From an uncultured Candidatus Saccharibacteria bacterium (GTDB lineage: Bacteria > Patescibacteriota > Minisyncoccia > Portnoybacterales > UBA2143), in contig CAZQLH010000004.1 in the NCBI GenBank assembly GCA_964594155.1, positions 1 through 57,642 of the forward strand: DNA of 57,642 nucleotides, given 5' to 3'. Made by a program: the position numbers and the translations under genes. The stretch's first letter is position 1. Each line of letters opens with the position of its first letter. Under the pieces are notes generated by a model that saw nothing but the letters and a program-made list of their open reading frames with translations, did no database searches and was not told where the DNA came from. Below, piece by piece: positions 42,243 through 51,131 of this stretch.

Positions 42243-42524
42243 TAGAATAAGAAATTAAACAATTGCAATTTTGTGCAGTTGTCCCAAATTATTTTTATTG
42301 AGAGTTTGATCCTAGCTCAGGATGAACGCTGGCGACGTGGATAAGGCATGCAAGTCGAACGACCCCGAGTTTATCGAGGGGTAGTGGCGAACGGGTTAGT
42401 AATACGTAGGGATCTACCCTGAAGTCTGGAATAACTTGGAGAAATCTAAGTTAATACCAGATAGTCCCGCAAGGGTAAAGTTCCCCGCAATACTGCGGGG
42501 TTGCGCTTCAGGAGGAACCTGCGC

Positions 42525-42564
<40 letters not shown>

Positions 42565-42790
42565 TGACGGGTAGGGGGAGTGAGAGCTTGACCCCCAACA
42601 ATGGGACTTAGACAAGGCCCATACACCTACGGGTGGCAGCAGTCAAGAACCTTCCACAATGGGCGAAAGCCTGATGGAGCGACGTCGCGTGAATGAAGAC
42701 GCTCTTCGGAGTGTAAAATTCTTTTCTAGAGGAACAATTTTGGCTTGCCAAAATGAGCGTACTTTAGGAATAAGGGGCGGCTAACTTCGT

Positions 42791-43710
42791 GCATTGGCGC
42801 GACCTCTGACGGTAACGTCAGAGAGAGAATCTAGTGCTAAGCTCGCACTAGAGAGAAACTCGGCTTATATGCTGGAACCCATTTATTTGATATTTAAAAT
42901 AAATGGCAATCAGCAGGGAAGTCGTTTATAATGGAAGTATGAGATCGTTAAATACAAATCTAATTTCTAAAACCCAACAAAAGATTATTATTGGTAATAT
43001 CTTAGGAGATGGGTCTTTAGAATTTAATGGATTTCGTGGAACACGATTACAGATAAAACAATCATTGAGATATAAAGAATATGTATTTTGGTTGTATGAT
43101 CAATTAAAAGACCTTTGTATTTCTAGTCCAAAACAGAGAAAAGACAATGATCAATGGTACTTTAGTACAAAATATTTAGCAGAATTAACTATTCTTCATA
43201 GAATTTTCTATCCTAATGGTAAAAAAGTAATTCCTAAAGATATTTCGAAATTACTTATTTCACCACTAACTTTGGCAATTTGGTATATGGACGATGGTTC
43301 ATTATACTGGCGGCCAAAAGAACATAATGGTTTTAGATTATGTACTAATTGTTTTTCTGTAAAAGACACACATCGATTAAAAAATGTTTTATATGATAAT
43401 TTTGGCATAGAATCTACAGTTCAAAGAACTTCATGTAGAGGCAAAAATTATCCTAGAATATATATTGGAGTAGCAGGTAGAAATAAATTTTTGAAAGTTA
43501 TCAAATCATATATATTAAACTGTTTTTCTCATAAATTACCTCCATTATAAATTGACCCTTCAGAGACTGATCCCTTTTATGGGAGAGATAATGGGTTCTG
43601 GATAATCCAGGTTTAAACCATTATCACACGCCGAGCCCCCGTTAAATATTTTTATATTTAATTGGGTGGTGATATAGTCCAGTAGAATTTTATATTATTG
43701 AATTCTATTA
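42791..43710 (+). mobile_element. Group I intron after 16S U516 (920 nt)
   Basis: P1 CGUGC/GCGCG with U-G pair, P10 with GCCA, AATCAGCAGGG, CAGAGACT and GATATAGTCC; exons rejoin as TTCGT|GCCAG. Confidence 0.9.
42939..43550 (+). CDS. Intron-encoded LAGLIDADG endonuclease (two motifs)
   Basis: IIGNILGDGSL and LAIWYMDDGS; ATG 42939 is 6 nt after a TATAAT. Confidence 0.9.
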   Translation: MRSLNTNLISKTQQKIIIGNILGDGSLEFNGFRGTRLQIKQSLRYKEYVFWLYDQLKDLCISSPKQRKDNDQWYFSTKYLAELTILHRIFYPNGKKVIPKDISKLLISPLTLAIWYMDDGSLYWRPKEHNGFRLCTNCFSVKDTHRLKNVLYDNFGIESTVQRTSCRGKNYPRIYIGVAGRNKFLKVIKSYILNCFSHKLPPL

Positions 43711-44083
43711 GCCAGAAGCCTCGGTAATACGAAGGCCCCAAGCGTTATCCGGATTTATTGGGCGTAAAGCGTGTGTAGGCGGTTTTAATAGTGATTGGTT
43801 AAATTCCGAAGCTCAACTTCGGAGCTGCTAGTCAAACGTTAAAACTAGAGCAAGTAAGAGGCTAATGGAACTTACCAAGTAGGGGTGAAATCCGTTGATA
43901 TGGTAGGGAACACCAAAGGCGAAGGCAATTAGCTGGTACTTAGCTGACGCTGAGACACGAAAGCGTAGGTAGCGAACGGGATTAGATACCCCGGTAGTCT
44001 ACGCCGTAAACGATGTCAACTAGCCGTTTGGAGTATCGACCCTCTGAGTGGCGAAGCTAACGCGTTAAGTTGACCGCCTGGGA

Positions 44084-44115
<32 letters not shown>

Positions 44116-44582
44116 AGACGGGGACTTGCACAAGCGGTGGATCATGTGGTTTAATTCGACATTACGCGAGGAACCTTACCAGGACTAGACATCCTGATGA
44201 CCGTTTACCGAAAGGTAGACTTTCTTTAGACATCAGGGTCAGGTGGTGCACGGTTGCCGTCAGCATGTGCCTTGAGGTGCTCCCTTAAATGGGTTAACAT
44301 GCGCAACCCTCGCCCTGTGTTACAAGTGTCACAGGGAACTGCCTCCGGACAGGAGGAGGAAGGCGAGGACGACGTCAAATCAGCGTGTCCCTAGATGTCC
44401 TGGGCGACACACATGATACAATGGTTAGGACAATGGGTTGCCAAACCGCAAGGTGGAGCCAATCCCATCAAACCTAGCCCCAGTTCGGATTGAGGGCTGC
44501 AACTCGCCCTCATGAAGCCGGAATCGCTAGTAATCGCAGATCAGCCACGCTGCGGTGAATACGTTCTCAAGTCTTGTACTCA

Positions 44583-45404
44583 AAAATAAATGTGCCTGGC
44601 AGCTATTATAATGCTAAATTGTTAAAATCAATTCCTCCAATATTTATTGGAGCGTAGCGAACAGACAGGTCTCGCACCGCGAGGTAGAGACTGAAGGGTC
44701 TTAGTAGCAAAAGACAGCCCTGTCATTAAAAGGATTCTTACGACCTATACGGTGAGTTATAGGGAAGTAAGCATAGTTAATAATCCGATAGGGATGCCCG
44801 GAATAGTATAAATAGTGACCCAGGGAGATCTTTGTGATATAATAGAGTTATGTTATGAAGTCACAAAGAAGTCAGCTGCGTCGTAGTAGCTCTAATTCGT
44901 TAGAGCGAAGGACAAAACCGACGGTCTCTCTAGATTATATTGTTGGTCTTACAGATGGCGAAGGATGTTTTTATGTTTGTATTAGACCGCCATACAATAA
45001 GAATGGCGGAGCAATGATTTTACTTTCGTTTTATATCAAGATGCAAGCAAAAGATAAATTTCTTTTAGAGAAGGTTAAAAATACGCTTGATTGTGGAAAT
45101 GTGTATTTCCAGAATGAAAAGCGTCCAAATCATACTCAATGTTATCGCTATACAGTTGCTTCGCATCGTGATATCTTAGGAAAGGTTATTCCATTTTTTA
45201 AGAAATATCCTTTACAAAGTACGAAAGTAAAAAACTTTAATATTTTTTGTAGTATTGCTGAAATGGTTCGCAATGGCGAACATCATAATCAAAAGGGAAT
45301 TGAAAAGATTAGATTATTAAAATCTAAAATGAATCGTCGGGCTCGCTGAGTGCGGGAAATCCGCTCGCTCAGTGGGGATTCGAAAGAACTCTACTTATCG
45401 AAAT
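44583..45404 (+). mobile_element. Group II intron after 16S A1398 (822 nt)
   Basis: Domain V CGCTGAGTGCGG-GAAA-TCCGCTCGCTCAGTG, DVI-like end in AT, GTGCC near the 5' end, EBS loop CGGTGAGT complementary to the spliced junction ACTCA|CCG. Confidence 0.8.
44855..45349 (+). CDS. Single-motif LAGLIDADG endonuclease in group II intron domain IV
   Basis: YIVGLTDGEGCF, F.I.M...D..LL..VK..L.CG.V, VIPFF.KYPL...K...F..F; stop codon lies inside domain V. Confidence 0.9.
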   Translation: MKSQRSQLRRSSSNSLERRTKPTVSLDYIVGLTDGEGCFYVCIRPPYNKNGGAMILLSFYIKMQAKDKFLLEKVKNTLDCGNVYFQNEKRPNHTQCYRYTVASHRDILGKVIPFFKKYPLQSTKVKNFNIFCSIAEMVRNGEHHNQKGIEKIRLLKSKMNRRAR

Positions 45405-49207: not shown

Positions 49208-49227
49208 AGCGAAATTCCTTGGCTGGT

Positions 49228-50276: not shown

Positions 50277-51131
50277 TACCAATTTAAGATAGGCCGCTGT
50301 TGGGAGTAATCCCAACTGACAAAATTCAACTTATAACGGTGAATGCTATATAATATAGTTAATACCGTGGGAAGTTAGAGAAATTTATGAAGTTATCATA
50401 TAGACAAAAAGAAATTCTAATAGGTTCTTTATTAGGTGATGGTCATTTAGAGAAAAATGGAGATAATGTTCGTTTAAGAATAGAACATAAAGAAAATCAG
50501 GAAAATTATTTAAAATGGAAACAATTAGAATTTAAAAATTTGTCTTGTGGTAAATCAAGATTAGTTTGTAAAATTGATAAAAGAAATAATAAAATGTATA
50601 AATCTTGGCATTTTTCGACATATTCTTTAGAAATATTCAATTCTTATCAACAAAAGTTTTATAAGAATAGAATTAAAATTATTCCAAAGAATATTATAGA
50701 ATTAATGTTTTCTCCTTTGTCCTTAGCTATTTGGTTTATGGATGATGGTCATAAAAGAACTGATTGTAATGCACTAAGATTAAGTACAGATTCATTTCGG
50801 CTTTACGAACAAAAATTATTATTGAAATGTCTAAAAATAAATTTTGGAATAAATAGTAGGCTACATAAAAAGAAAGATACTTGGAATATTTATATTCCAA
50901 GTGCAGAAGCAAGAAAATTTTGTAAGATAGTAAAGCCATATATTATTCCAGAAATGAATTATAAGATTTCTTTAACCCCGTAACGACTGAGTCTATATAA
51001 GATAGACGAGATAGTGGGTACCTAATATTTAGGATTTAAACCATTATCACACGTTGAGCCCCTATTGAATAATGAACATTTAATAGGGTGATGATATAGT
51101 CTATACATGTAGTAATACGTGAAATAATATG
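50277..51131 (+). mobile_element. Group I intron after 23S U2511 (855 nt)
   Basis: P1 CGGCU/GGCCG, core blocks, terminal G; GTCGGCT|CATC. Confidence 0.9.
50387..50983 (+). CDS. Intron-encoded LAGLIDADG endonuclease (two motifs)
   Basis: ILIGSLLGDGHL and LAIWFMDDG. Confidence 0.9.
   Translation: MKLSYRQKEILIGSLLGDGHLEKNGDNVRLRIEHKENQENYLKWKQLEFKNLSCGKSRLVCKIDKRNNKMYKSWHFSTYSLEIFNSYQQKFYKNRIKIIPKNIIELMFSPLSLAIWFMDDGHKRTDCNALRLSTDSFRLYEQKLLLKCLKINFGINSRLHKKKDTWNIYIPSAEARKFCKIVKPYIIPEMNYKISLTP

Follow-up and report, generated by a model that had tools for sequence, protein, structure and literature searches.

A terminal G is near-universal among group I introns. Splicing follows a two-step scheme in which an exogenous G and then the terminal G act at P7 (reviewed in PMC3679873), and the U-G pair at the 5' splice site is completely conserved and catalytic (PMC11835236). 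These two features, the terminal G and the U.G wobble, serve as the rules by which group I boundaries are defined and both splicing steps explained. The Cbu.L1917 intron of Coxiella burnetii reportedly has A as its last base and self-splices in vitro. The title of Raghavan et al. (2007), as cited in PMC11270868, describes a Coxiella 23S intron that 'lacks the canonical omegaG'. Literature searches for A-ending group I introns returned no report beyond Coxiella, and this 23S intron is the one published precedent known for a terminal A. The intron studied here is likened to Cbu.L1917 by description, both being bacterial rRNA group I introns with an apparent non-G last base; Cbu.L1917 lies at L1917 of the 23S rRNA, whereas the present intron lies at S516 of the 16S rRNA.

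Nuclear introns at S516 are of the IC1 or IE types. These eukaryotic introns (e.g. in myxomycetes, PMC9223047) occupy the same site, after U516 of the small-subunit rRNA. The present intron is likened to them by site; it is IA-like, with P7.1/P7.2 and a LAGLIDADG open reading frame (ORF) in P6, unlike the nuclear IC1/IE introns. The host of the present intron is a tiny bacterium of the candidate phyla radiation (CPR), and the group I introns of CPR rRNA genes (Brown et al. 2015; Tsurumaki et al. 2024, PMC11270868) share both lineage and kind of element with it. Many of the CPR rRNA introns carry single-domain LAGLIDADG genes, and they are removed from transcripts (PMC11270868). The survey of these introns placed insertions by alignment to E. 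coli and did not map the junctions to the base (PMC11270868).

The window, the whole stretch of 57,642 nucleotides that was analysed, contains an rRNA operon in which Rfam recognised a 5S rRNA, a 23S rRNA with one called group I intron, and a bacterial 16S rRNA in two pieces (42302-42817 and 43577-44638). All features are on the forward strand. Exon 1 of the 16S rRNA (42302-42790, within the first Rfam match) ends in ...GGCTAACTTCGT at 42790, which we take to be U516 by numbering from the 515F motif. Exon 2 (43711-44638, from the Rfam alignment and the RNA joint described below) begins GCCAGAAGCCTCGG, at G517. The intervening 920 nt (42791-43710, limits that assume cleavage at S516) start with GCATTGGCGCGA (42791-42802) and end in ...GAATTCTATTA at 43710. 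In relatives without the intron the 16S junction reads CTTCGTGCCAGAAGCC, with G517 present. A LAGLIDADG homing endonuclease ORF of 215 aa (42903-43550, from the ORF list) lies in the P6 loop; it has hundreds of relatives, and the closest are those in S516 introns. The assembly is 100% complete and this 16S stretch is present as a single copy, so accurate removal of the intron is necessary. The element is a genuine group I intron, and the 16S gene that it interrupts behind U516 is the only one assembled for this genome.

The core motifs and the covariation of P1, P3, P4 and P6 identify the element as IA-like with P7.1/P7.2. The 5' strand of P3 (CUCGGC, 42859-42864) pairs with GCCGAG at 43630-43635, and compensatory changes among homologs preserve this helix (CUUAGC/GCUAAG, CUCAGC/GCUGAG, UUCGGC/GCCGAA, UUUGGC/GCCAAA). 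Compensatory changes were also found in P4 (UGCUGG/CAGCA, UGCGGG/CCGCA) and in P6, which pairs across the ORF. The 5' strand of P7 (GAGACU, 43563-43568), which includes the putative guanosine-binding G-C pair, lies in an invariant ACCCYUCAGAGACU, and the 3' strand (AGUCC, 43676-43680) lies in an invariant AUAGUCC, preceded by a nearly invariant J8/7 (mostly GAUAU). These pairings, which include the P3/P7 pseudoknot, make up an IA-like group I core. At the gathering threshold Rfam did not call the S516 intron; in E-value mode, Intron_gpI (RF00028) gave a partial match of 17.2 bits over P4-P6, below the threshold of 50. Two ORF-less relatives also fell under the gathering threshold, one of them (L016) scoring 23.5 bits (E 0.00067) against the same threshold of 50. 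The low score arises because the ORF in the P6 loop and the P7.1/P7.2 insertion after P7 disrupt the model.

At the 5' splice site, P1 (42787-42802) is formed by UCGU and GC (42787-42792), a loop AUUG and the guide GCGCGA (42797-42802), which places U516 opposite G42799. The P10 guide UUGGC (42794-42798) pairs with GCCAG of exon 2 (43711-43715) in five contiguous pairs. Both the U-G pair at U516 and the pairing of the guide with the 3' exon are thus present in the window, as the earlier note had claimed. They are followed by a P2 hairpin (CUCUGACG-GUAA-CGUCAGAG, 42804-42823); the tabulated homologs likewise have a hairpin after the guide, mostly with a GNRA loop. A G stands opposite U516 in all 31 introns of the family (the window and 30 homologs), while the flanking exon and guide pairs covary (CGU/GCG, UGU/GCA, ACGU/GCGU), with C514-G changed to U-A and U513-A changed to A-U. 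A wobble kept amid covarying Watson-Crick pairs is the hallmark of a cleavage site.

Introns with a base other than G after U516 bear directly on this placement. In the homolog L043 the 5' junction reads CTGT|AATCTC, with A after U516 and the opposite guide base changed from C to U, and the 3' end reads ...GTATA|GCCAG. With no G after U516 in L043, only cleavage at S516 combined with a terminal A retains G517. Four further introns (L121, L194, L198 and L203) have A after U516 and end in ...G|GCCAG, a fully canonical S516 arrangement, and their ends fix S516 as the site that these introns use. Three of them (L194, L198 and L203) belong to other subfamilies and came from a pattern search for non-G bases after U516, in which all three proved to end in G. 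Under the S516 reading, L127 (...TAATATC|GCCAG) and L044:1218-2108 (...AAGCTC|GCCAG) have C as their last base; in both, U stands opposite the first intron base, so that a G.U pair adjoins the U516.G wobble.

Removal of the intron was examined in public RNA data. One metatranscriptome, from the study that also supplied the best DNA-matching run, yielded a 222-nt contig (depth 200) in which 42790 is joined to 43711 with exactly 920 nt left out, and the exon contigs of that metatranscriptome (depth 140-310) show zero differences. G517 is therefore kept, which on this RNA rules out G43711 as the terminal G of an intron cut after U516. In two further RNA runs, contigs track exon 1 to 42792 and then diverge, and in one of these the loose ends at 43711 read GGCTAACTTCGT. 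Intron cover was zero in three RNA runs from two studies, which is taken to prove nothing beyond the joined contig. The joined contig thus records precise removal and exon ligation, though the sample also holds an intron-less DNA form: DNA run X1 contained the intron form (depth 31.9) together with a short joined intron-less contig (depth 10.7; shorter side 25 nt). The sample thus also contains a strain or relative that lacks the intron, and part of the joined RNA could therefore derive from it.

The identity of base 43710 is secure. The terminal position is A in the window and in a 951-nt DNA contig from a public run, possibly the source sample, which spans 42780-43730 with zero differences and shows no other letter at 43710. 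The ending ...CTATTA|G is also shared with the separate genomes L031 and L002. The earlier note's statement that this base is A is therefore upheld, and the different base at 43710 that it had named as the finding to overturn it is contradicted by the DNA contig. With the 5' site at U516 and A43710 as the last base, the intron lacks the omega G of group I introns, which is regained only if both splice sites shift jointly by one base.

To place this ending in its family, homologs were gathered through the endonuclease gene and DNA similarity, and 30 introns with both junctions were tabulated with the window. Under the S516 reading, 19 of the 31 introns end in G, 11 in A and 1 in C, so that a terminal A recurs in a comparison of the kind that the earlier note had proposed. 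Further A-ending members include L002, L016 (ORF-less, 411 nt), L117, L124 and L214. The last of these was, apart from the window itself, the one new true member from a loose pattern search for non-G ends in 400 genomes of the phylum, in which the hits were mostly chance matches. A maximum-likelihood tree of the endonucleases required four changes of terminal state, and for at least two of them well-supported branches leave no alternative; on this tree the window pairs with L031, both ending in A, within a mainly G-ending group, and a second clade holds 9 A-ending, 2 G-ending and 1 C-ending introns. This recurrence across homologs and tree indicates that, judged from sequence, the terminal A is of old date, has arisen repeatedly and has been kept in genes whose function depends on splicing. 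The P7 strands UCAGAGACU and AUAGUCC are invariant across G-, A- and C-ending introns, and the predicted guanosine-binding G-C pair of GAGACU/AGUCC is identical in all three classes. No change in P7 or J8/7 that tracks the terminal base was found across the G-, A- and C-ending introns.

The structure next to the 3' splice site did differ between the classes. In the window, a P9.0/P9 hairpin of 10 bp (43681-43709; 43681-43690 paired with 43700-43709) begins immediately behind P7 and reaches up to the base that precedes the terminal A. A helix from the first base after AGUCC to omega-1 was present in 11 of 12 non-G introns (6-10 bp, one broken by a single mismatch), compared to 2 of 19 G-ending introns, most of which carry their terminal G on a four-base single-stranded tail. 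Similarly, the mean contiguous P10 was 4.25 pairs in non-G introns compared to 2.84 in G-ending introns. These associations are descriptive, with 1-3 independent contrasts, too few for a statistical test. In the Tetrahymena structure, P9.0 directly adjoins the terminal G; the hairpin geometry of the A class matches it if A is the terminal base. In contrast to Coxiella, A is found here in about a third of a family, with C once, and is accompanied by a tight P9.0/P9 hairpin. Taking the family as a whole, we see an even chance that this branch of CPR S516 introns has relaxed the requirement for a terminal G, with A frequent and C occasional, with more than one origin, and with a P9.0/P9 clamp and P10 fixing the 3' site while the pocket stays unchanged.

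The exact boundaries have to be chosen among equivalent cuts. The junction can slide by up to 2 bases without altering the ligated rRNA (computed 'both = 2'), because the intron begins GC and exon 2 begins GCC, and three cut pairs are therefore equivalent. Two are of interest: U516|G...A|G517 (S516 with a terminal A) and G517|C...AG|C518 (S517 with a terminal G). Both give identical ligated rRNA, so the sequence of the ligated exons cannot separate them. Under the second, introns of the A class would be cleaved after G517 (42791, paired with C42798), the intron would run from 42792 to 43711 with a terminal G, and A43710 would be a one-base spacer behind the hairpin. Such a shift would leave the rRNA unchanged and retain the terminal G that an unchanged P7 pocket would prefer, and a G precedes CCAG in all 31 tabulated members. 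It would, however, assign no function to the invariant U516.G wobble (31/31) and turn the cleavage site into a Watson-Crick G-C pair, would give L043 and L121 an A at position 517, which is universally conserved, and would require two sites to move jointly upon one G-to-A change. It would also separate P9.0 from the terminal G by a spacer; with cleavage at S516, by contrast, the hairpin adjoins the terminal base directly. A related S516 subfamily offers the shift some support: L054 and L144 have no G before CCAG and an A opposite U516, and must have G517 as their last exon base if the rRNA keeps G517. Weighing these points, we consider the shift unlikely, though a serious contender, and the 5' splice site of the window's 16S intron most probably lies at U516, which would make its last base A. 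The earlier note's placement at U516 with a terminal A is thus favoured by the invariant wobble and by L043, but a joint one-base shift would yield the same rRNA; its argument that ending the intron at the next G deletes G517 holds if the 5' site stays at U516 and fails if both sites shift.

Cleavage at U516 could also be combined with G43711 as the terminal G, giving a mature rRNA without G517. This arrangement would satisfy both canonical rules together, but the RNA contig lacks 920 nt rather than the required 921 and has the sequence CGUGCCAG, and G517 is present in intron-less relatives, making it highly improbable. The probability of an assembly or sequencing error at A43710 is negligible, given the identical public-run DNA contig with no alternative letter listed, the same ending in L031 and L002, and a terminal A in more than 10 homologs. 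The terminal base might instead be little constrained because removal, or the second step, is aided by a protein or by host cleavage and ligation. The occurrence of A, C and G at the terminal position agrees with such a route, as do the LAGLIDADG proteins encoded by many members, some proteins of this kind being known maturases in general (PMC11270868). Against it, the core, wobble and P10 are conserved and covary as in an active ribozyme, the ORF-less L016 retains a terminal A, and the terminal base is a purine in 30 of the 31 introns, a bias that points to constraint. We therefore regard help of this kind as improbable.

With the 5' site at U516 and A43710 as the terminal base, the second splicing step calls for an account of its own. 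In the Tetrahymena ribozyme, a change of the terminal G to A is said to block exon ligation, so a functional terminal A with an unchanged pocket needs explaining. We think it reasonably probable that a canonical first step at U516 is followed by a second step at the A43710-G517 bond, with the A placed by the hairpin clamp and P10. Exogenous guanosine in the unchanged P7 pocket would attack after U516, at the site marked by U516.G42799, and the freed 3'-OH of U516 would then attack the A43710-G517 bond, leaving an intron that ends in A. The guanosine pocket accommodates A poorly, and the position of the 3' splice site would thus depend mainly on structure, namely the 10-bp P9.0/P9 hairpin and the 5-bp P10 that holds G517-G521. 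L016, which combines a terminal A with the lack of an ORF, shows that an intron-encoded maturase would not be required. Against a terminal A stands G517 itself, which directly follows A43710 and which the pocket would bind in preference. For the altered second-step chemistry or slower splicing that the earlier note suggested as a possibility, the comparison offers an unaltered guanosine-binding sequence in P7 together with a tighter 3' hairpin and longer P10 in A-ending introns.

The two placements predict different RNAs. The 16S rRNA of L043 would read CUGUGCCAG if the intron is cut at S516 and ends in A, and CUGUACCAG if the register is shifted. Likewise, ligated exons from an intron carrying 42791A and 42798U would read CGUGCCAG in the former case and CGUACCAG in the latter. 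In about a third of the S516 family the two boundary rules cannot hold together, in rRNA genes that need accurate splicing. If the terminal A is true, nature has in these introns ribozymes whose exon ligation proceeds with no guanosine in the G site, and they provide a G/A/C series on one scaffold for studying the choice of 3' splice site. If the register is shifted, cleavage falls one base from the wobble, which would be equally unorthodox. Boundary-calling pipelines that demand a terminal G would mis-annotate these rRNAs by one base.

The 23S rRNA of the window provided a comparison within the same operon. Read by eye against E. coli motifs, it contains five introns, at L1931 (48984-49207), L1951 (49228-49477), L2449 (49970-50214), about L2500 (50277-51131) and about L2585 (51205-52028), each of which follows a U and ends in G; for two of them the position at which the exon resumes (50215 and 51132) is borne out by the Rfam matches to rRNA. 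On this reading the earlier note was right that all five 23S introns end in G. They resemble the S516 intron in group I type and P1 wobble pairs, but for each of them a reading exists that has U at -1 as well as a terminal G, and the S516 intron cannot satisfy both. The boundary at L2449 is also repeated (AACA), yet one choice there fits both rules, whereas at S516 none does.

Several further observations concern these genes and their relatives. Within the 23S intron at 50277-51131, the segment 51008-51101 is 77% identical to the P7.1/P7.2 region of the S516 intron (43585-43679), a similarity that may reflect either a module held in common or the descent of introns at different sites of one genome from one ancestor. 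The L1931 and L1951 introns lie close together, with a 23S exon of only 20 nt (49208-49227) between them. This arrangement resembles that of Coxiella, where a 34-bp exon is said to separate the two 23S introns. The S516-region intron L054:1231-2087, identical to L144 and of another subfamily, has its ORF in P9 and ends in ...AACTCA|CCAG; either G517 is its last exon base and A its own last base, or position 517 of its rRNA is A, and shifted or otherwise odd registers may thus exist in this lineage. The window's closest relative (L031) and L043 are both labelled Candidatus Saccharibacteria, a group in which group I introns in rRNA are mostly absent (PMC11270868). This S516 intron also occurs in the bacterial-type 16S rRNA of a 1232-nt contig labelled Nanoarchaeota (L040, JAUSIK010000021.1), which is almost the same as L123 and has probably been binned wrongly. 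Finally, an Rfam match to group II intron D1-D4 at 44834-44913 (38.8 bits), downstream of the 16S match end at 44638, points to a further insertion, of group II-like type, close to where the 16S rRNA ends on its 3' side, and a group II-like insertion at 16S position 1400 has been reported in this lineage (PMC11270868).
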